Origin: a virus
Taxonomy: Duplodnaviria > Heunggongvirae > Uroviricota > Caudoviricetes
Reading direction: 5' to 3' (one strand)
DNA length: 53,171 nt
Virus record (IMG/VR): IMGVR_UViG_2721755711_000003
Location: 1 to 53,171 of that record
In this document: piece by piece, positions 1 to 53,171 of the stretch
How positions within the stretch are numbered: the stretch's first letter is position 1
Layout: every line of letters begins with the position of its first letter
Made by a program: the position numbers and the translations under genes
Notes under the pieces: model-generated
What the model was told of the DNA's origin: nothing
Seen by the model: only the letters and a program-made list of their open reading frames with translations
Databases searched by the model: none

Positions 1-1236
1 CTACGATAACCGCGCATTCAACATGGCTACCTGTTCGTCGTTCATGTCATCAATCCACATACCGTAAATTTCATACACCATCTGCGCAGTTTCATGCCCC
101 ATCTGGCTGGCTATAAATGCCGGGTTCGCTCCTGCCGTCAACAGCCAGCAGGCAAAAGTATGCCGCGTATGGTACGGATTACGGCGGCGAATACCAGCAC
201 GTTTTACTGCTGCATTCCACCTTGCCCCCAAACTGCTTACCGAGTAATAAGGTTTCTGTTTTCCGTTACACATCCTGGGCATGAAAACAAAATGCAGTTT
301 TTGCTTTTCGGTTCTGCCGTACTCCCTATGATAAAAGGTGATTTCGCTTTTGCGATGATGTCCGGTCAGTTTGTATTGCTCCTTCAGTGCTTCAAGAGCA
401 GGCTGCAGTAGTGTTACTGTCCGGATCCCGGCATTTGTTTTTGGGGGACCGAACATATCAAGTATCGTCAGGTTTCTTCTGACATTCACAATTCCCTTCT
501 CGAGATCCACATCCTCCCACGCCAGAGCTGCCAGTTCCCCGTGACGAAGTCCTGAGTAAACGGCAAATTTCCACAAGTTCTGGCTCTGTCCTTTTTCACT
601 TTCCATTAATGCATTGAATTCTGTTTTAGATAACGGGTCAGGCTTTATTCTGTTTCGCTGTAATTTTTTTACTCCTTCAAATGGTTTGGTTGATATAAAT
701 CCCGACTGATACGCAAAACGTAACAACGAACAGAGTAGGGCGATATAGTTATCAACTGTGCGTACGGTTCTTCCTTTTTTGTTGGATCTTGGATTATCCA
801 GGTAAAGCGTTTCTCCATGCAGCAGTTCATTCCGGTAGTTTAAGATATCGCTATAACGAATATGCGATATCGGGGTACTCTCACAAATTATTATCTTGAG
901 TGTTTTTAATTGTGATTTCGTTTTCTTCATTGTGTTTGTTGTTAACTCTGTCTCTTTAATTTTTGTCCAGATATCACAAAGCTCCCCGAACGTTTTTATG
1001 ACCCTAGTTGTCACCATTTTTGCTCCAGTGCTGGACTGGGGGAAACGTCTTAAATACTCAAATTCACCGGAATTGATTTCATGAACTATCAACGCTCTTA
1101 AATTCCCGGCTTTTTTAATGTTACTGTTAGTAACCTCCCAGCCTTTCAATGTTTCCCGGCATCGTTTTCCTCGAAACATGAACCAGATGCGAATGTATTT
1201 ACCTCGAATCTCGACACCTGTTGGTAATTTAGACAT
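1..1236 (-). CDS. int: phage integrase (tyrosine recombinase family)
   Basis: 411-aa minus-strand ORF ending at the window edge; sequence character and position next to an excisionase-like ORF match Rac/lambdoid integrases. attL would lie outside the window. Confidence 0.8.
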   Translation of the reverse strand: MSKLPTGVEIRGKYIRIWFMFRGKRCRETLKGWEVTNSNIKKAGNLRALIVHEINSGEFEYLRRFPQSSTGAKMVTTRVIKTFGELCDIWTKIKETELTTNTMKKTKSQLKTLKIIICESTPISHIRYSDILNYRNELLHGETLYLDNPRSNKKGRTVRTVDNYIALLCSLLRFAYQSGFISTKPFEGVKKLQRNRIKPDPLSKTEFNALMESEKGQSQNLWKFAVYSGLRHGELAALAWEDVDLEKGIVNVRRNLTILDMFGPPKTNAGIRTVTLLQPALEALKEQYKLTGHHRKSEITFYHREYGRTEKQKLHFVFMPRMCNGKQKPYYSVSSLGARWNAAVKRAGIRRRNPYHTRHTFACWLLTAGANPAFIASQMGHETAQMVYEIYGMWIDDMNDEQVAMLNARLS

Positions 1237-13149: not shown

Positions 13150-14040
13150 TCAGGCTGCCAGATCATCGTTTCCGATGGAAGCATAATAAGCTTTTTCTGC
13201 TTCTGCCGGTGGGATATGGCCCAGCCTTTCCAGCAATCGTCGATTGTTATACCAGTCCACCCACGTGAGTGTGGACAGCTCCACTTCTGTCCGGTTTTTC
13301 CAGCGCTTACGGTGTATTACCTCCGCTTTGTAAAGGCCATTGATGCTCTCCGCCATCGCGTTGTCATACGAGTCACCAGTACTCCCTGTTGATGCCAGTA
13401 AGCCGGCTTCCTTAAGCCGCTGCGTGTAGGCCAGCGATACATACTGAGAACCTTTATCACTGTGGTGGATTGTGCCGGACGGCCGACGGGCCCACAACGC
13501 CTGCTCCAGTGCATCCAGCACGAATGCCGTTTCCATGGATGATGAGACCCGCCATCCCACGATGTATCCGGCGAACACATCAATGATGAACGCCACATAA
13601 ACGAAGCCCTGCCATGTGTTTACCCAGGTAAAATCAGCCACCCACAACTGGTCAGGACGTTCTGCCACGAACTGACGGTTTACGCGGTCGCATGCGGCAA
13701 CGGCTTTCCGGCTGACGGTAGTGCGGACCTTTTTACCCCGGAGAACACCGGCAAGTCCCATAACCGCCATGAGACGTGCCACAGTGCATCTGGCCACTCT
13801 GATACCTTCCCGTAACAACTGACGCCAGACTTTACGCACACCGTATACCTGGTGATTTTCATCGTATACGCGCTGTATCTCTTTCTTCAGCCAGTCATCG
13901 CGCTGCGCACGGGCACTGCGTTTATCAGGATGATGTCGCTGTTGCTGACAGTGGTAATACGTTGACGGGGCAATATGCAGTTCGCTGCATACCGGTCCGA
14001 CCCCGTACTGCTCACGCAGCTTATCCAGCAGTGGCATCAT
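13150..14040 (-). CDS. IS3-family transposase OrfB (integrase core)
   Basis: 296-aa ORF with a DDE-type transposase core, overlapping orfA in the arrangement expected for a -1 frameshift fusion. Confidence 0.85.
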
Positions 14041-14363
14041 TTTTTCCAGAGGCGGTCGAACTCCGCCTTCGCAAAATAAGCGGAAGCCTGGCGAAGGATA
14101 TCGTTACTGCGGCGCAGTTCACGATTTTCACGTTCCAGCTCTTTCAGACGCTGACGTTCAGCGGTGGTGAGCCCACCATCACCGCCCCCGGTATCCCGCT
14201 CATGCTGGCGAACCCAGACACGCAGAGTCTCCGGCGTACAGCCAATTTTTGGGGCAATGGAACAAATTGCCGCCCACTGTGAATCATACTCATCCTGACT
14301 TTCCAGAACCATACGAATCGCTCGCTGACGGACTTCGGGGGAAAAACGAGTATTTTTAGTCAT
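14037..14363 (-). CDS. IS3-family transposase OrfA (HTH)
   Basis: 108-aa ORF with HTH and leucine-zipper-like C-terminus, starting just inside the IS629 right inverted repeat. Confidence 0.8.
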
Positions 14364-14578
14364 CCTGTTTACCTCTTTCTCAGGGAGTTTAGTCTCCAGG
14401 ATTCCCGGGACGGTTCAACTTCCATCGAGATCGGGTAATAACATTTGAACAGATCGCTGAATAACATCGATGGAGATCACTTTTGACTCATTTTGTTATT
14501 CAGTGATCTCCATCAATGTTATTGGAACTTCACAGGTGTGTTGATCTGTATCTTTTGCCATTCCGGTAAAGGATACCT

Positions 14579-16120
14579 ATGCCAACAGTTCCAATTTCTA
14601 TGAGAAAACTTAAAGAAATTCTTAGGCTTAAATACGGTGTTGGACTCAGCCATCGACAAATTGGTCGTAGTCTTGCAATCTCCCCTTCCGTTGTATCCAG
14701 ATATGCTAATCGGGCGGCTCAACTTGGCATAAAGCAGTGGCCCTTACCTACAGGATGGGATGATACAAAACTAAAACATGCGTTCCTTCAGACCCAGGTT
14801 AAGATGAAGAAGCACTCTCTGCCTGACTGGGCTACAGTACACCGGGAACTGCGTAATAAATGCGTGACGCTGCAGCTACTCTGGGAAGAATACTGTGAGC
14901 GTAATCCAGGCGGTTTTTACAGCTATAACCATTACTGCCGGATGTACCGTGAATGGCTCAAAACCACTTCACCATCAATGCGTCAGGTACATAAAGCTGG
15001 CGAAAAACTTTTCGTTGATTACTGTGGACCTACCGTTGGCGTTACCGACCCTGAGACCGGAGAAATAAGAACTGCTCAGGTCATCGTAGCTGTTCTCGGG
15101 GCATCAAGTTACACATGGGCAGAGGCCACCTGGTCTCAGCAGCTTGAAGACTGGGTGATGAGTCATGTTCGCTGCTTCCAGTGGTTGGGTGGCGTTCCTG
15201 AACTTGTTGTTCCGGACAATCTGAAAAGCGCCACATCCAGGGCATGTAAGTATGATCCTGACGTTAACCCTACCTACCAGCAGATGCTTGAGCATTATAA
15301 TGTCGCAGTTTTGCCTGCGCGGCCACGTAAACCGAAAGATAAAGCCAAAGCTGAAGTTGGCGTTCAGGTTGTTGAACGCTGGATCATGGCCCGAATCAGG
15401 CATGAGATCTTCTACAGCCTTGCATCGCTTAATCAGCGCATTCGGGAGTTGCTGGAAAGACTGAATAACAAAATAATGCAGAAGTTGGGTTATTCACGTG
15501 CAGAACTCTTCATCCAGCTTGATAAACCCGCACTGAAGCCTCTTCCTGAAGCCAGTTACAGTTACACCCTGGTGAAGAAAGTCAGAGTTCATGCCGATTA
15601 CCACGTGGAAATCGACAAACATTACTACTCGGTTCCATGTTCGCTGTTAGGCCAGCAACTGGAAGCATGGATCTCCGGAGAACTGGTAAGACTCTTCAAT
15701 CAGGGGCAGGAGGTTGCTGTGCACCCGCGCAAGCGTACTTATGGCTACAGTACCCGCAACGAGCACATGCCTGAAGCTCATCGACAGCATGCCACCTGGA
15801 CGCCAGAGCGTCTTCTGGAATGGGCGGGGCACATAGGCAGTGAAACTCATAGTTATGTGCTTCATATACTGAACTCTCGTCCACATCCGGAACAAAGCTA
15901 TCGCTTCTGCCTTGGACTCCTGAACCTTCATAAAAAATACAGTAAAGCCAGACTTAATGCAGCATGTGCAAGAGCTCTGAAAACAAAGGTATGGCGTCTG
16001 TCAGGTATTAAATCGATCCTGGAAAAAGGTCTGGATAAACAACCTGTTCAGGATCCAAAACCAGATCTGTTATCCACGATGGAACACGAAAACGTACGCG
16101 GCAGTGAGTATTACCACTGA
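14579..16120 (+). CDS. istA: IS21-family transposase IstA
   Basis: 513-aa ORF with N-terminal HTH and a DDE-type core, followed by an IstB-like ATPase gene. Confidence 0.75.
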   Translation: MPTVPISMRKLKEILRLKYGVGLSHRQIGRSLAISPSVVSRYANRAAQLGIKQWPLPTGWDDTKLKHAFLQTQVKMKKHSLPDWATVHRELRNKCVTLQLLWEEYCERNPGGFYSYNHYCRMYREWLKTTSPSMRQVHKAGEKLFVDYCGPTVGVTDPETGEIRTAQVIVAVLGASSYTWAEATWSQQLEDWVMSHVRCFQWLGGVPELVVPDNLKSATSRACKYDPDVNPTYQQMLEHYNVAVLPARPRKPKDKAKAEVGVQVVERWIMARIRHEIFYSLASLNQRIRELLERLNNKIMQKLGYSRAELFIQLDKPALKPLPEASYSYTLVKKVRVHADYHVEIDKHYYSVPCSLLGQQLEAWISGELVRLFNQGQEVAVHPRKRTYGYSTRNEHMPEAHRQHATWTPERLLEWAGHIGSETHSYVLHILNSRPHPEQSYRFCLGLLNLHKKYSKARLNAACARALKTKVWRLSGIKSILEKGLDKQPVQDPKPDLLSTMEHENVRGSEYYH

Positions 16121-16131
16121 TACGGGATCCA

Positions 16132-16881
16132 ATGATGAATCATCTTTACGAACAACTGACCGCACTTAAACTCACCGGCTTCCGTGATGCGCTTAAAAAG
16201 CAACTTGCTCAGCCGGGCACATACCAGGAGCTGGGCTTCGAAGAACGCCTGTCATTACTGACAGCAGAAGAACTAACCTGCCGTGAAAACAGGAAGGCAG
16301 AGCGTCTGATCAAACATGCACGGTTCAGACTTAATGCTGAGTTATCAAAGCTGGATTATCGTAACAATAGAGGGCTGGACAGGGCCCTCATCCGTTCACT
16401 CAGTCAGGGAAACTGGTTAACCCTGAAACAAAATATTTTACTGACCGGGGCCACCGGCAGCGGTAAAACGTTCCTGGCATGTGCACTTGGTCATAATGCC
16501 TGCCGACAGGGATACAAGGTCTACTATTATCGCCTTAAAGCGCTGATGGAACAGTGCTATCAGGGGCATGCTGATGGAAGATACAGCAAACTTTTGACCA
16601 GGCTGAATAATAGCGATCTGCTGCTTCTGGATGACTGGGGGCTGGAACCTCTCTCATCAGAACAGCGTAGCGACCTGCTGGAAATAGTGGATCTGATGTA
16701 CCAACGAGGCTCAATCATCGTAGTGAGCCAGTTGCCGGTGGAAAACTGGTACAAAATGATCGGAGACTCCACACATGCGGATGCCATCCTAGATCGACTG
16801 GTTCATGGCAGTATCAAGATCGAACTTAAAGGAGAATCAATGCGGAAAATACAATCTCCGTTGACCGAAGGAGATCAGTGA
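16132..16881 (+). CDS. istB: IS21-family helper ATPase IstB
   Basis: 249-aa ORF with Walker A (LTGATGSGKT) and Walker B (LLLLDDWG) motifs. Confidence 0.8.
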   Translation: MMNHLYEQLTALKLTGFRDALKKQLAQPGTYQELGFEERLSLLTAEELTCRENRKAERLIKHARFRLNAELSKLDYRNNRGLDRALIRSLSQGNWLTLKQNILLTGATGSGKTFLACALGHNACRQGYKVYYYRLKALMEQCYQGHADGRYSKLLTRLNNSDLLLLDDWGLEPLSSEQRSDLLEIVDLMYQRGSIIVVSQLPVENWYKMIGDSTHADAILDRLVHGSIKIELKGESMRKIQSPLTEGDQ

Positions 16882-21703: not shown

Positions 21704-21779
<76 letters not shown>

Positions 21780-21782
21780 TAT

Positions 21783-21854
<72 letters not shown>

Positions 21855-22156
21855 CTCTTGTAAAACAAACGAGGCATAGCTTTATCAGCACTGGCGAATT
21901 TTCGCGGAGAACAGCTTTGTAGGTACTATTGTTTTTCTTCATGCTGTAATATCTGAACGGTTACAGTTTCAGTGCTGCTTTTTTTGTATTACATAATGGT
22001 ATGTGATTATTACTTGTAAACGTCGTTAGCAGAATGAGTCGTTACCTGTTCCATGCGCACACGTACAGTAAGCCAGGGTGGCTTTGTAGGTTGACGACTC
22101 ATTCTGGTGGCGACCATATATAAATATAATTCTATTACTACACGATGAATGCTCTG

Positions 22157-29366: not shown

Positions 29367-30803
29367 ATGGCAGAGATCGAGATTACTGGCGGCCTCGGTT
29401 CGGCACTGATGCGTATTCTTGAGGCTGAAGAAATTCAGCCGGGAACCGATATCGGCTATGAACTGTGTAAGCTGCTGTGGCAATTCCATCCTCTGGGCGG
29501 AAAACTTGTCGAAAAACCCATACTGATGGCGATGTGTAAGCCGCGACAGTATAACGTGGAGACAGATCCTGACGAGAGGGTTGTGCGGCGTTTTCAGGAG
29601 GTATGGGAACGTATGAAAGTCAACGAGAAGATTAAAAATCTGTTTTTTCTGTCTCGTTGCTACGGTGCCGCAGCGATCGGCGTGGGCACCGACAGTGTTT
29701 CATGTCGTGAACCGCTTCCGACGTTCGGACTGACAGAAGAGGATGTGTATATCAACGCGTGGGATCCGTTGAACGCTTCCGGTTCGATGGTGACTGACCA
29801 GAACCCAAACAGTCCGTTTTTCCAGGAAGCCAATAAAAAGCTGAAGATTGGCGGAAAAGACTGGCATCCGTCACGCACGTTGAAAATTTTCAACGGCACA
29901 CCGATTTATCTGGAGTTTCAGAGTTCATCGTTCGGATTCACCGGGCGAAGCGTGTTTCAGCGCGTTCTTTATTCCCTGAAATCCTATATCAACACGATGG
30001 AGGCGAATGATCTCGTCAGTCAGAAAGCGGGCGTACTGGTAGCTAAAGTTGTGCAAAACGGTTCGAAACTTGACGGGATCATGGCTGCCGCCACGGGACG
30101 AAAAAGGGAAAATGTCAAAGAGGCAAAAAATAAAGGTGTGCTTAGTATCGGGAAGGATGAGGACGTTACCTCGCTGAATTTACAAAACATCGATGGCGCG
30201 CTAAATGCCGCCCGCGACAACATTATTTCCGATATTGCATCAGGTAGCGATGTTCCCGCGATTCTCATCAAGGAGGAGGCTTTCTCGAATGGTTTCGGTG
30301 AAGGAACTGAGGATTCGAAAGCTATCAGCCAGTATATCGATGGTGTACGCCAGCAGATTGAACCTGTGATGGATTATTTCGAACGCCTGGTGCAGTACAT
30401 CGCCTGGAACGAGGAATTTTATCAGTCGCTGAAAAATGATTACCCGGACATCATAACTGATGACTATAAAACCACGTTTTACCAGTGGCGACGTGAATTT
30501 ACCGCGACATGGCAGGAGCTGGTGGAGGAGTCGCCGGACAAACGCCGGGAAAGCGACAGTAAAGTGATTCAACAGGCGATAGCACTTTTCTCTGCCGTGT
30601 CGCCACAGGTTGATCCTGAAAACCGTGCCGCCGTCACTGAATGGCTGGCAAGCCTTGTTAATGCCACGCAAACCTATGGCGAAGCTCCACTCATCATTGA
30701 TGTGGACGCGCTGGCGAATTATGAACCACCGAAGCAGGAGACGCCTGATGGCAATTTCCAGCCGGGCGGTGAGGAAGAAGAAACGGATCAGGACGCTATA
30801 TGA
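29367..30803 (+). CDS. portal protein
   Basis: About 478 aa immediately after the large terminase; acidic C-terminus. Track ORF begins at a TTG; ATG at 29367. Confidence 0.55.
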   Translation: MAEIEITGGLGSALMRILEAEEIQPGTDIGYELCKLLWQFHPLGGKLVEKPILMAMCKPRQYNVETDPDERVVRRFQEVWERMKVNEKIKNLFFLSRCYGAAAIGVGTDSVSCREPLPTFGLTEEDVYINAWDPLNASGSMVTDQNPNSPFFQEANKKLKIGGKDWHPSRTLKIFNGTPIYLEFQSSSFGFTGRSVFQRVLYSLKSYINTMEANDLVSQKAGVLVAKVVQNGSKLDGIMAAATGRKRENVKEAKNKGVLSIGKDEDVTSLNLQNIDGALNAARDNIISDIASGSDVPAILIKEEAFSNGFGEGTEDSKAISQYIDGVRQQIEPVMDYFERLVQYIAWNEEFYQSLKNDYPDIITDDYKTTFYQWRREFTATWQELVEESPDKRRESDSKVIQQAIALFSAVSPQVDPENRAAVTEWLASLVNATQTYGEAPLIIDVDALANYEPPKQETPDGNFQPGGEEEETDQDAI

Positions 30804-44218: not shown

Positions 44219-44566
44219 ATGAGAACATGGGGCCGCGTCAACGACGCGAACGGCAACAAAAAATGGGTTGCAGTAGAATCTGACACCAACGGTGATTTCT
44301 CCTACGGCTGGCTGACGACGCTCATTCAGACGTTAAAGCTGGGGTTGGGGGAGTCGCCGTTTTACGCGAATTACGGCATTCCAGCGCAGCAGTGCATCGT
44401 GCAGCAGATTTACCCGGACTACTATGTGAACATGGTTCAGCAACAGTATGCCGGGTATTTTGCATCGCTGGCAATTTCAAAAGTAGATGGGGCAGAGAAC
44501 CCCACCTATAACATCGATGTTGTGTTTTTTAACGGAACCAGTTACCGGACGCAGGTTCCGGTTTGA
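44219..44566 (+). CDS. hypothetical protein
   Basis: ATG 44219 (MRTWGRVNDANGNKKW...); 115 aa. Confidence 0.4.
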   Translation: MRTWGRVNDANGNKKWVAVESDTNGDFSYGWLTTLIQTLKLGLGESPFYANYGIPAQQCIVQQIYPDYYVNMVQQQYAGYFASLAISKVDGAENPTYNIDVVFFNGTSYRTQVPV

Positions 44567-45111
44567 GGCAAGTTTTCGGGCATCAATTGGGCCAGTGGCG
44601 TGTTAAGAAGTTCATCGCGTGGCATGACAATCCATCCACTTTTGCGTAGTAAGTGAATTGCCCATTCTGTGGTGATAACTGAGCCTGATTTGTGGTGCTC
44701 AATGTGGGTAACCGAGCCGTTTCTGACGCGCATGATGATGTCAACATTCAGAGGGGATTGTGTGCTGGTGGTATCTTCGCGCAGCTTCTTCTCGCACTCG
44801 ATGAAGTATCGGCGGATCTGGCGTCCTTTTTCGTTGCGCTCGACCATTGCCAGTTCTTTGGCGGTGTCTAGGGTGAGGTGGTAGTCCTTGCGGTTATGTC
44901 CTCCTCTGCCTCCTAACGATTGCTTTCCTGTTTTGGAAAGCAAAATGTAATCTTGATTTTCTGTAAATCCGTATTCTGCGATGCGGGATGTAATCCAGGC
45001 TGCGAAAACCTTACCTACACCAAGAAAAGCGTGCAGATCACGAGCATTACAGAGTAGGGCGGTTTCGTTTGAGATAGTTCCGTTGAAAACGGGGATTAAT
45101 TGTATTGTCAT
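44542..45111 (-). CDS. antirepressor-like protein (AntA-type N-terminal domain)
   Basis: 189 aa on the opposite strand inside the baseplate cluster; N-terminal region LLCNARDLHAFLGVGKVFAAWITSRIAEYGF typical of antirepressor domains. Confidence 0.55.
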   Translation of the reverse strand: MTIQLIPVFNGTISNETALLCNARDLHAFLGVGKVFAAWITSRIAEYGFTENQDYILLSKTGKQSLGGRGGHNRKDYHLTLDTAKELAMVERNEKGRQIRRYFIECEKKLREDTTSTQSPLNVDIIMRVRNGSVTHIEHHKSGSVITTEWAIHLLRKSGWIVMPRDELLNTPLAQLMPENLPQTGTCVR

Positions 45112-45443: not shown

Positions 45444-46190
45444 ATGATTAAGTTTAAATTATTTGTAGTGTTTGCTTTTTTATTACAAATCGGAACTGCG
45501 AATGCGGTATCTTTTGATTGCTCGAAAGCTAAATCATATTCTGAAAAGTTAATTTGCAGCAACAGTGAATTATCTGAACTTGATGATAAATTAAATTCTT
45601 TATATCAAAAAGTAAAGTTAGAGAGCGCTGATAAGAAAGCTTTTAGAAAAATTGTTTCAGACTTGTGGAATGAAAGAGAGAAGTGCAAAACAGAATCATG
45701 TGTTCGACAATGGTATTCTAATGCATTCAGGGAATATTCATCTTTAAATGAAATTAATGAGAACATAATCAATGAATCAAAGAATTACGCTGAATGGTAT
45801 ATTGATGGTGCACTGATAATATTACCTCCACTGGAAGGTGTTAGTAAAAATAGATTCCTGATGTATGGCGATGATGGGACAATAGCTATTTTTATTGCTT
45901 CAAAATCTAAAGGCAATGGATTTTGCGATAATTCAGTGCAAATTGATGGGCCATTAGAGTATCCACCAATTTTGATTAATGGTGAATATTATAAAACTTA
46001 TAAATCATGCTTGTATGGAAATGGTTTTATAGTACCAAAAACTGAAATTGGTAAAGCGGTTCTGAAAGAATTGGTTATGAAAATGAAGCCTATAAAAATT
46101 TCTTTTGGAGACGGCGATGAATTTAACTATCCTCCATCAAATGTAAAAAGAATGCTTGAGAGGGTGGAAAAAATGAAACAGGCAAAATAA
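45444..46190 (+). CDS. secreted protein with LprI-like (DUF1311-like) N-terminal domain
   Basis: 248 aa; signal peptide MIKFKLFVVFAFLLQIGTANA; Cys-containing N-terminal region (FDCSKAKSYSEKLICSN...LNSLYQ); clearly lower GC than flanking tail genes; own terminator. Confidence 0.55.
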   Translation: MIKFKLFVVFAFLLQIGTANAVSFDCSKAKSYSEKLICSNSELSELDDKLNSLYQKVKLESADKKAFRKIVSDLWNEREKCKTESCVRQWYSNAFREYSSLNEINENIINESKNYAEWYIDGALIILPPLEGVSKNRFLMYGDDGTIAIFIASKSKGNGFCDNSVQIDGPLEYPPILINGEYYKTYKSCLYGNGFIVPKTEIGKAVLKELVMKMKPIKISFGDGDEFNYPPSNVKRMLERVEKMKQAK

Positions 46191-51565: not shown

Positions 51566-52129
51566 ATGGAAATAAAACGCATCGAAAATGCGCGTTATCT
51601 TGAAAATGGCGCGATTGACTGCGGGGTGTTGTTTGATGGCATGGATGAACCGGTTCCGTATACGGCAACTGCCACGGATACAGCAGAGACAGGGCAGCGA
51701 GTCTGGCAGGAGCTGCAAAGCGGGAGATGGGGAGAAATAACGCCGTTCACCGTCACGTCAGAGATGCTGGAAGCAGCAAAAGCAGCCAAACGCCGGGAAA
51801 TTGAAGCATGGCGTACAGAGCAGGAGGCGCAGCCATTCATTTTTGAATGGAACGGTCATAGCTGGAACGGGGGACCGGATTCGATGGCCCGTCTTTATCC
51901 GGTGGCGATGGCATCGAAATCCGACACAGCACGGGACGTCATGACGTGGGGCGATGCGGAAAATCAGCAGGTAAAGTTGTCAATGCAACAACTGGATGAG
52001 CTACTTACTGCAATGGTTCAGGCGCAGGTTGATCGCAATGATGAAATTTATCGCCGTCAGCGAGAGATGAAAGAAGCGTTAAATACACTGAAGGATCTGA
52101 GCTCAATCAGAAAGCTGGCAATTAACTAG
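51566..52129 (+). CDS. tail fibre assembly / chaperone-like protein
   Basis: ATG 51566; 187 aa immediately downstream of the second fibre gene. Confidence 0.4.
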   Translation: MEIKRIENARYLENGAIDCGVLFDGMDEPVPYTATATDTAETGQRVWQELQSGRWGEITPFTVTSEMLEAAKAAKRREIEAWRTEQEAQPFIFEWNGHSWNGGPDSMARLYPVAMASKSDTARDVMTWGDAENQQVKLSMQQLDELLTAMVQAQVDRNDEIYRRQREMKEALNTLKDLSSIRKLAIN

Positions 52130-52217
52130 TAATTTACGGGTGATTTTGGGCTTTTGTTACACATTCGCAACGAAGAATTGTGTGCCATTAGCCCAAGAAA
52201 ATTATATTTTAATGATT

Positions 52218-53171
52218 TCAACAGTTACTAGTGTGTTTCTTGTTATAATCGTCAAGTAAAAAATCTTTGTGTTTTTCAGCCAGTAAACCTACTTCCCCCC
52301 ATTTCAAAATATGTGTCCAGTATCCCATGCCGACAGATGATATTGGAGCGTAAAAAATAATAATTCTATTTTTTGCATTTTCGTCCGTTATACCACGAGA
52401 AATTGCAGTGTTATTTTCTATTCGCACTCTGAAATCAGGATAATAACAAGAATCTTTTAATTTTAACCATACGGTTGAATGATTAGTATGTTGTTCTATT
52501 GAACTTATTTCACCAAAATAAAACCCCGGTTCTTCTTGTTCAGAGCGGATATCAGAAATACTTTTTAATGCATCGCAAAAAATATAACTGTGAGCGAGAC
52601 CAGTGCCAGTGGTGATAAATATCTCTTTATAGTAGTTTTCTTGAAAGTTAGTACATAGAGCTTGCACGCTTGTTATCTTACTGGGCAGATTGAATGTTTC
52701 ACCTTGATGACGAGAGATGGGAATTTCAACAAATACCCCATTTTTACTTTCAAAGTACATTTCCGTTGGAGTGGCGGAAGAATCTGTATTATCACGATAT
52801 ACAAGTTCTGGTCGTTCCTGCATGAATCCGGATATGATAATGACATCATTGTCGCTAACAGCTTTTTGGGCTTCTTCTTCACTAGAATAGCGTTTCCCGA
52901 TAATAGCTCCGCTTCTCAACAAACAAAAAGGAGCATTTGGATTTGGGTAGTGGCGGAAGAGAGCTTCTCGCCCGTCAGTCATAATCGTTATACTTGACTC
53001 TGATGGTATACGATTAAGTGGCTCATAACATTGGGGACAAATGAGATGATCTTTCATTTCTTCTTGATATTCTAATGGTCCAACACTTGTACGAACTAAC
53101 TGTGCTGTACTGTGTATGCTTTTATCCCATACAGGATCGAAATAAGCATAGGCAATGCGGCGGCTAGTCAT
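52218..53171 (-). CDS. hypothetical protein, AT-rich cargo gene (function unknown)
   Basis: 317-aa minus-strand ORF whose start codon is the last three bases of the window; visibly lower GC than the adjacent tail-fibre genes; CPQCYEP motif near the N-terminus; no family recognised. Confidence 0.5.
   Translation of the reverse strand: MTSRRIAYAYFDPVWDKSIHSTAQLVRTSVGPLEYQEEMKDHLICPQCYEPLNRIPSESSITIMTDGREALFRHYPNPNAPFCLLRSGAIIGKRYSSEEEAQKAVSDNDVIIISGFMQERPELVYRDNTDSSATPTEMYFESKNGVFVEIPISRHQGETFNLPSKITSVQALCTNFQENYYKEIFITTGTGLAHSYIFCDALKSISDIRSEQEEPGFYFGEISSIEQHTNHSTVWLKLKDSCYYPDFRVRIENNTAISRGITDENAKNRIIIFYAPISSVGMGYWTHILKWGEVGLLAEKHKDFLLDDYNKKHTSNC

Follow-up and report, generated by a model that had tools for sequence, protein, structure and literature searches.

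The Tin protein of phage P2 is encoded by an AT-rich lysogenic-conversion gene and blocks T-even phages by poisoning their single-stranded DNA-binding protein (SSB), gp32. The single-gene defence cargo that has been validated in hotspots of prophages and P4 takes the form of one-gene cassettes of low GC content and patchy distribution, found at prophage ends and in integrase islands. Here we describe a gene that resembles both, located at the very end of a Caudoviricetes sequence of 53,171 nucleotides (nt; IMG/VR record IMGVR_UViG_2721755711_000003, positions 1 to 53,171), which as a whole we call the window. This gene, hereafter the cargo gene, occupies positions 52218..53171 on the minus strand and encodes a protein of 317 amino acids (aa). 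We found that it moves horizontally as a one-gene cassette and lies at the attR end of a Rac-site prophage, and we consider, with moderate confidence, that its product is a stand-alone binding protein of the defence type, serving anti-phage defence or superinfection exclusion.

Like tin, the cargo gene is a single AT-rich, non-essential gene at the edge of a temperate phage, and its product has no recognisable catalytic domain; unlike Tin, which has 253 aa and is co-transcribed with old, the protein has 317 aa. Homology between the two was rejected (BLASTP E 2.4 or worse; hhalign probability 0.3%), as was membership of the Tai tail-assembly-inhibition family, which is unrelated in location and target. 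The protein also differs from the systems and candidates collected in PADLOC-DB v2 in that no PADLOC model matches it (0 matches at E <= 1 in v2.0.0). With CoiA and the DUF7830-DUF6035 proteins (CoiA_N, PF25164; DUF7828, PF25165; DUF7830, PF25169) it shares an N-terminal C-x2-C ... [FY]-x-H ... C motif. Unlike those proteins, it has no detectable PD-(D/E)xK domain after the predicted zinc ribbon, and a unique middle segment and a predicted OB fold stand there instead.

A one-gene unit beside attR in a Rac-site prophage

The window holds a prophage trimmed to gene boundaries, with intR (1-1236, minus strand) as its first gene and the cargo gene as its last. It is 100% identical to Escherichia coli C5 record NZ_CP010122.1, in which the counterpart of the 317-aa open reading frame (ORF) is WP_061351682.1, labelled a hypothetical protein in RefSeq. 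In the ORF listing, the stop codon lies at 52218-52220 and the ATG at 53169-53171, so that the start codon forms the final three bases of the window. In the C5 record, which continues past this edge, a GGAG stands 7 nt ahead of the ATG and the reading frame is closed by a TAA two codons upstream; the start is therefore genuine and the ORF complete: this is a real gene. A reading made from the sequence alone (the sequence-only reading) had described a 317-aa minus-strand gene at the window edge after the tail-fibre genes, and we recovered exactly this arrangement. The cargo gene is convergent with the last tail-fibre-associated gene, a member of the DUF4376 family (51566..52129, plus strand; RefSeq annotation of the identical record), from which it is separated by an 88-bp spacer. 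The DUF4376 gene is a boundary feature outside the cassette: it forms the end of the structural module, and homology to related prophages ends with it.

Base composition sets the cargo gene apart from its surroundings, as had been proposed from inspection. Its GC content is 37.6% (0.376), against 48.5% (0.485) for the rest of the window, and its GC content at third codon positions (GC3) is 28% (0.283), against 0.44-0.53 in the four adjacent tail genes. Only 1.6% of 954-bp intervals were equally AT-rich, and all of the others fell inside the low-GC gene at 45444-46190.

The prophage occupies the Rac attachment site within the 5′ end of ttcA and has ttcA on one side and uspF on the other. As att core it has a directly repeated 15-nt sequence, TTGTTCAGGTTGTAT; the first copy is found 86-100 nt left of window position 1 and the second (attR) 334-348 nt beyond position 53171 (locus L001 17006-17020). 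Past attR, 17 codons of the original ttcA 5′ end remain as a stub, followed by the host gene uspF; the replacement ttcA 5′ end at attL is supplied by the phage. Only about 334 bp of phage DNA separate the cargo gene from attR, and because attR and uspF follow directly, no phage gene lies beyond the cargo gene, which in E. coli lacks an upstream partner. The sequence-only reading had placed both the promoter and any partner genes outside the window; the promoter region does lie there, but what follows in E. coli is attR, the ttcA stub and uspF, with no partner genes. A draft contig of E. coli in which intR is followed immediately by attP and the cargo gene (locus L013 6331-8954) points to prophages in tandem or to a circular form that was assembled, and identifies the cargo gene as phage DNA adjoining attP.

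Two copies of GCAAAAATGGGGCAA lie in the 334-bp upstream arm (locus L001 16856-16870 and 16885-16899), with a similar motif, AAATGGGGCAAAT, near attL; these repeats are probably arm-type binding sites for IntR. The sole promoter candidate in the upstream phage DNA was TTGTAA-18-TACTAT, which ends at -87 and has 8/12 consensus matches. In the host DNA upstream of the ttcA stub we found a promoter-like site with 9/12 matches, CTGACA-17-TACCAT (locus L001 17151-17179, minus strand), about 480-507 nt upstream of the cargo ATG. Since this site is aimed across attR toward the cargo gene, it is conceivable that the gene may be transcribed from the ttcA promoter in an integration-dependent manner.

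The distribution of the gene is that of cargo. It was present in 3 of 5426 complete E. coli genomes, in the same slot each time, and the many draft E. coli assemblies that carry it do so in this slot as well. Related prophages that have the DUF4376 gene carry either an ORF6N protein or nothing between it and attR; the slot is thus variable, in line with the cargo hotspot that the sequence-only reading invoked, and because it is empty in related prophages, the phage life cycle does not require the cargo gene. A post-tail-fibre slot is also occupied by a homologue in an unrelated, Mu-like prophage of Edwardsiella. When genera were compared, DNA similarity started a few bases before the ATG and did not extend past the stop codon; what is transferred is thus the ORF itself, which travels alone. 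Homologues had a GC content of 34-44% in all hosts examined (Serratia, Edwardsiella, Pantoea and others). The ratio of nonsynonymous to synonymous substitution rates (dN/dS) was 0.11 between E. coli and Edwardsiella and 0.07 between Pectobacterium and Pantoea, values that denote a constrained protein under purifying selection.

Because the E. coli gene abuts attP/attR and has the IntR arm-type repeats just upstream, we considered whether it could encode an accessory of mobile-element DNA transactions, that is, an integration/excision cofactor or a helper of replication or recombination that binds single-stranded DNA (ssDNA). An integrase lies within one to four genes of the homologue in at least seven genomic contexts, and OB folds and zinc ribbons are typical of SSB, RPA and RecO-like proteins. 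Proximity to an integrase is, however, expected of any cargo gene at an island edge, and several contexts have neither an integrase nor other mobile-element machinery. With XisR, RecE, RecT and replication proteins already encoded by the prophage, and with the slot empty in related prophages, we regard this role as very improbable.

Protein family and predicted domain architecture

Scans of the protein against Pfam, NCBIfam, PHROG and PADLOC gave nothing past a chance NEAT match (E = 0.084), and no PHROG or relevant Pfam match to structural or chaperone families (Caudo_TAP, DUF4376) was found. Searches of PDB sequences, made with the protein and with a 78-sequence profile, returned only low-complexity or CxxC noise. 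The sequence-only reading had named a confident match to a housekeeping or well-characterised phage structural family as evidence against its view, and none was found in these searches.

A word-indexed search yielded 24 clusters, all labelled hypothetical, from Enterobacterales and one Pseudomonas, with lengths of 307-317 aa except for one truncated sequence of 258 aa. An exhaustive profile search extended the family to 127 representatives at 50% identity, mostly of 300-313 aa, and a second profile search, against a set of 5.8 billion proteins, returned only the name "hypothetical protein". Some members have low-complexity C-terminal tails, one such variant being from the cyanobacterium Acaryochloris; when ten longer members were scanned with Pfam for fused effector domains, none was found, the extensions being low-complexity tails. 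Among mobile elements, the cargo gene had no DNA match in the phage collection and no match in plasmids. By tblastn, the phage collection contained one Vibrio element with a homologue of 30% identity (PQ189354), and IMG/VR contained the same E. coli prophage only. No description of the family was found in the searched literature, and its accessions were absent from the DefensePredictor supplements.

We used an alignment of 78 divergent homologues for the family-level tests of conservation, Pfam and PADLOC matches. Only C45, C48, P56, H74 and C83 were invariant in these sequences, and R54, G220 and G292 were nearly so. PADLOC matches among the 78 were isolated and weak; one member weakly matches two PDC-M02B models (E = 1.6e-4 and 1e-3), and through it the family might be connected with a candidate system already listed.

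AlphaFold2 gave a predicted local distance difference test (pLDDT) score of 72 from a shallow alignment, and a pLDDT of 88.7 with a predicted template modelling (pTM) score of 0.84 from the 78-sequence alignment. Together with conservation in the alignment, the model delimits an N-terminal domain of aa 1-113 (52833..53171, minus strand; pLDDT 79-97), predicted to consist of four short strands, one helix and one further strand, which carries a conserved RIAYAYYDPxW motif and a zinc ribbon. The ribbon is a predicted C2HC ribbon of the CoiA_N/DUF7830 type, spans aa 43-86 (52914..53045, minus strand) and is marked by C45, C48, H74 and C83 plus P56 and R54. The short CxxC motif that had been noticed in the sequence is C45-P-Q-C48, part of a C-x2-C...H...C set whose four ligands are present in 78/78 homologues. 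An HNH-type interpretation of this motif was rejected, because only the four ligand residues are invariant and none are left for catalysis. Over aa ~37-96, the ribbon matched DUF7830 in 7/78 members (best 1.1e-3), DUF7828 in 4/78 and CoiA_N in 1/78 (E = 0.028), in every case below the Pfam gathering scores. An hhalign comparison with a DUF7830-DUF6035 protein (E = 0.0078) covered 37 columns and paired only C, C, F-x-H and C.

The ribbon domain is followed by an acidic, variable linker (aa 114-146; 52734..52832, minus strand), which has the lowest pLDDT in both models, variable alignment columns and a median net charge of -5 across the family; its 3′ end carries a conserved E141-(D/S)142...G145. 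Next comes a conserved middle segment (aa 147-205; 52557..52733, minus strand), recognised from the secondary structure of the model and from conservation, in which a beta-hairpin with P-I-S-R154-H155-x-G and the sequence PSKITSVQxLCxNF are accompanied by two short helices and a second hairpin; R154 is conserved in 69/78 members and H155 in 63/78. The C-terminal part (52221..52556, minus strand) is predicted to form an OB fold (aa ~206-298) and a long terminal helix (aa 299-314). In the model, its elements are ordered b1-b2-b3-helix-b4-b5 and form a five-stranded closed beta-barrel with the helix between strands 3 and 4, as an OB fold requires, and a Foldseek search of viral structures returned OB-fold matches only. 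OB proteins with a comparable C-terminal helix include Ten1, Stn1, RPA32/RPA14, archaeal RPA, the HIN-200 proteins AIM2 and p204, and the anticodon-binding domains of AsnRS, AspRS and LysRS. Identity to these is 5-17%, the OB domain of the cargo protein is acidic rather than basic, and there is no wider architectural similarity.

The sequence-only reading recognised no domain in this protein beyond the CxxC motif; the modelling now adds a predicted C2HC zinc ribbon and OB fold. The predicted architecture therefore comprises binding modules only, in what appears to be a soluble, acidic protein. As modelled, the combination of a CoiA_N-type ribbon with an OB fold, lacking the nuclease that usually follows such a ribbon, is one that has not been previously described.

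We weighed whether the protein could nevertheless be an enzymatic defence protein, in which aa ~95-205 would form a divergent nuclease at the place where CoiA and DUF6035 proteins carry PD-(D/E)xK, with the OB fold serving in substrate recognition. CoiA and DUF7830-DUF6035 proteins have this type of ribbon ahead of a nuclease, and a DUF7830-DUF6035/CoiA-like nuclease gene with this ribbon lies two genes away from the homologue in the Vibrio phage element (L039 8438-9688). Residues E98, E141, D142, R154 and H155 are also fairly conserved. These candidate catalytic residues are, however, never invariant (D142 47/78, H155 63/78), whereas the zinc ligands are (78/78), and the hhalign similarity was limited to the 37 columns of the ribbon. 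No recognisable catalytic family was detected in the 78 members: CoiA_nuc, DUF6035 and other nuclease models were unmatched, the first two being absent from the 25 families that these members most often matched at E <= 0.1. On balance, a nuclease seems unlikely to us.

Genomic neighbourhoods and proposed role

We examined 19 distinct genomic contexts of homologues. A recognised defence gene lay within about three genes in 10/19, a qualitative count that was not set against a genomic background, and 4 more contexts were prophages or phage elements; defence neighbours thus occur in many genera. In Serratia marcescens, the homologue lies between genes for an SRA-HNH ScoMcrA-like protein, GmrSD and type I restriction-modification, and in S. 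plymuthica between a helicase-PLD protein and EcoRII/Vsr/Dcm. The Providencia rettgeri homologue is part of an island with a P4-type integrase that also contains a HigB/M78/Beta-protein trio and MvaI/BcnI restriction-modification. Neighbours in Pantoea ananatis are an OLD-TOPRIM ATPase and a UvrD helicase, a Gabija-like pair; those in Pectobacterium and Lelliottia include AbiTii and AbiJ, respectively. An HTH-M78 protein and an unknown gene accompany the Enterobacter homologue, a Beta protein, with or without an M78 peptidase, those of Salmonella arizonae and Phytobacter, and a Fic-wHTH protein that of Pseudoalteromonas. When 80 ORFs near the homologues at nine loci were scanned with PADLOC, the matches were to PD-Lambda-2 A/B/C, RmrT/RmrA, SoFic, HNH, mREase_IV and PDC-S32, with E values down to 1e-187.

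The prophage and phage contexts comprised the E. coli prophage of the window; the Mu-like Edwardsiella prophage, where the homologue follows the tail-fibre chaperone gene and adjoins Mom/Com; the early region of a Pseudomonas cichorii prophage, with a methylase, Lar and a weak AbiC match; and the Vibrio phage element PQ189354, where the homologue adjoins an HNH endonuclease. We found no neighbour that was conserved across all contexts. In Edwardsiella, Pantoea and Pectobacterium, the homologue is immediately preceded by a small conserved Cys-rich ORF of ~65-95 aa, absent in E. coli, which bears the motifs RHKCxxCAYExG and SQAGxVRHK...AYxxGYxDG and has no Pfam match (L032 7656-7940; L036 7707-7976; L034 7766-7960). 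It may be an optional partner.

The variable slot in E. coli and, in other genera, the homologues that adjoin genes of the restriction-modification, Gabija-like, PD-Lambda-2, Rosmer-like, SoFic and Abi kinds lend good support to the suggestion, already made in the sequence-only reading, that this is accessory cargo of an undescribed, defence-related kind. We infer a defence role from this genomic context; the binding of nucleic acid or of a phage protein, and the non-enzymatic nature of the product, are likewise inferred. As we picture it, the protein would be expressed by the lysogen and would act as a stand-alone defence or superinfection-exclusion factor, through a stoichiometric rather than a catalytic mechanism. 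Given binding modules with no detectable catalytic domain, recognition followed by stoichiometric blockade would be the most likely mode of action. The target of the zinc-ribbon and OB modules would be an intermediate of phage replication or recombination (ssDNA or a DNA end) or, alternatively, a phage protein such as SSB or a replication factor, and this binding would block phage DNA replication or trigger growth arrest. The effect would be functionally comparable to that of P2 Tin, with no homology between the proteins.

Neighbours of a different kind would fit a factor of counter-defence or of competition between elements, for example an acidic, OB-fold or DNA-mimic-like protein that shields the DNA of its element or inhibits a host system; such a gene would be a hitch-hiker in these variable regions. 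Both prophages with anti-restriction neighbours, that of Edwardsiella (Mom/Com) and that of P. cichorii (Lar and a DNA methylase nearby), are consistent with such a factor, and so are the acidity of the protein and of its linker and its location at the extreme end of the phage genome, adjoining attP. In the chromosomal defence islands of Serratia, Pectobacterium and Pantoea, however, homologues occur with no phage genes, and there the protein would oppose its own neighbours. The cargo gene is moreover an independent unit oriented opposite to the phage late operon, as is usual for cargo expressed by the lysogen. For these reasons we consider counter-defence quite unlikely.

Several points nevertheless weigh against a stand-alone defence-type binding protein. 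Besides the qualitative nature of the count of defence neighbours, 5/19 contexts (Morganella, Photorhabdus, Psychromonas, P. phoenicis and Acaryochloris) were uninformative or at most suggestive. Given the upstream Cys-rich ORF in three genera, some versions may be two-gene systems. We looked for a strong promoter upstream of the cargo gene and found none. Both the protein and its OB domain are acidic, with an isoelectric point of about 5.5, which is atypical of a high-affinity nucleic-acid binder, and the modelled acidic OB domain could just as well be of the protein-binding kind found in Ten1 or Stn1. Finally, the semi-conserved E141, D142, R154 and H155 within aa 1-205 may leave room for a cryptic enzyme.

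With these points in mind, we put forward a fuller version of the defence proposal only tentatively. In it, the protein would be the founding member of a new single-protein anti-phage family, patchily distributed in Gammaproteobacteria and cyanobacteria and lacking an enzymatic effector, whose CoiA-type ribbon and RPA/Stn1-like OB fold would recognise a phage replication intermediate or a phage SSB-like protein and would halt the infection by stoichiometric action; in E. coli, integration may switch the gene on via the ttcA promoter.

Single-gene cargo of prophages and defence islands is a known kind of finding, and we regard this locus as a solid lead for testing rather than as a surprising discovery. 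If the gene proves protective, it would represent a new defence family that annotation tools miss because no Pfam, NCBIfam, PHROG or PADLOC model covers it, and a clean case of single-gene immunity with no obvious enzymatic effector. Its trigger, once found, could point to a novel means by which the replication of phage DNA is sensed or blocked. The family also offers a compact model of how a one-ORF cassette moves among post-tail-fibre slots of Rac-site and Mu-like prophages, islands with P4-type integrases and chromosomal defence islands.

Two homologues were found to be interrupted. That of Salmonella enterica subsp. arizonae has a premature stop at codon 109 (L026 10001-10954), and that of Phytobacter massiliensis a frameshift near codon 104 (L028 10001-10955); the two copies are identical over their N-terminal 103 residues and carry different lesions at nearly the same place.

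Other features of the prophage

Within the 88-bp spacer between the cargo gene and the convergent DUF4376 gene we observed an imperfect hairpin, TTGGGCT...AGCCCAA (52146..52196), with an RNA folding energy of -21.2 kcal/mol (z = -2.55 against shuffled sequences). It was not called in the terminator scan because it lacks a T-run, and may be a bidirectional terminator.

The window contains a second AT-rich cargo gene at 45444-46190 (plus strand; GC about 0.30-0.33), between an antA/antB-type antirepressor gene (44542-45111, minus strand) and the baseplate J gene. Its product has 248 aa and a signal peptide, and is labelled a lysozyme inhibitor of the LprI family in RefSeq. In the early region, at about 13150-16881, RefSeq annotation places an IS3-family element and the IS21-like ISEc12 side by side, and in view of these two insertion sequences the prophage may be defective. 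Just after the terminase large subunit gene, where a portal would be expected, the gene at about 29367-30803 (plus strand) is labelled "anti-CBASS protein Acb1 family" in RefSeq, which may reflect a mis-annotation or a fusion. Upstream of the lysis cassette, genes for tRNA-Thr(TGT) and tRNA-Gly(TCC) are located at 21704-21855 (plus strand).

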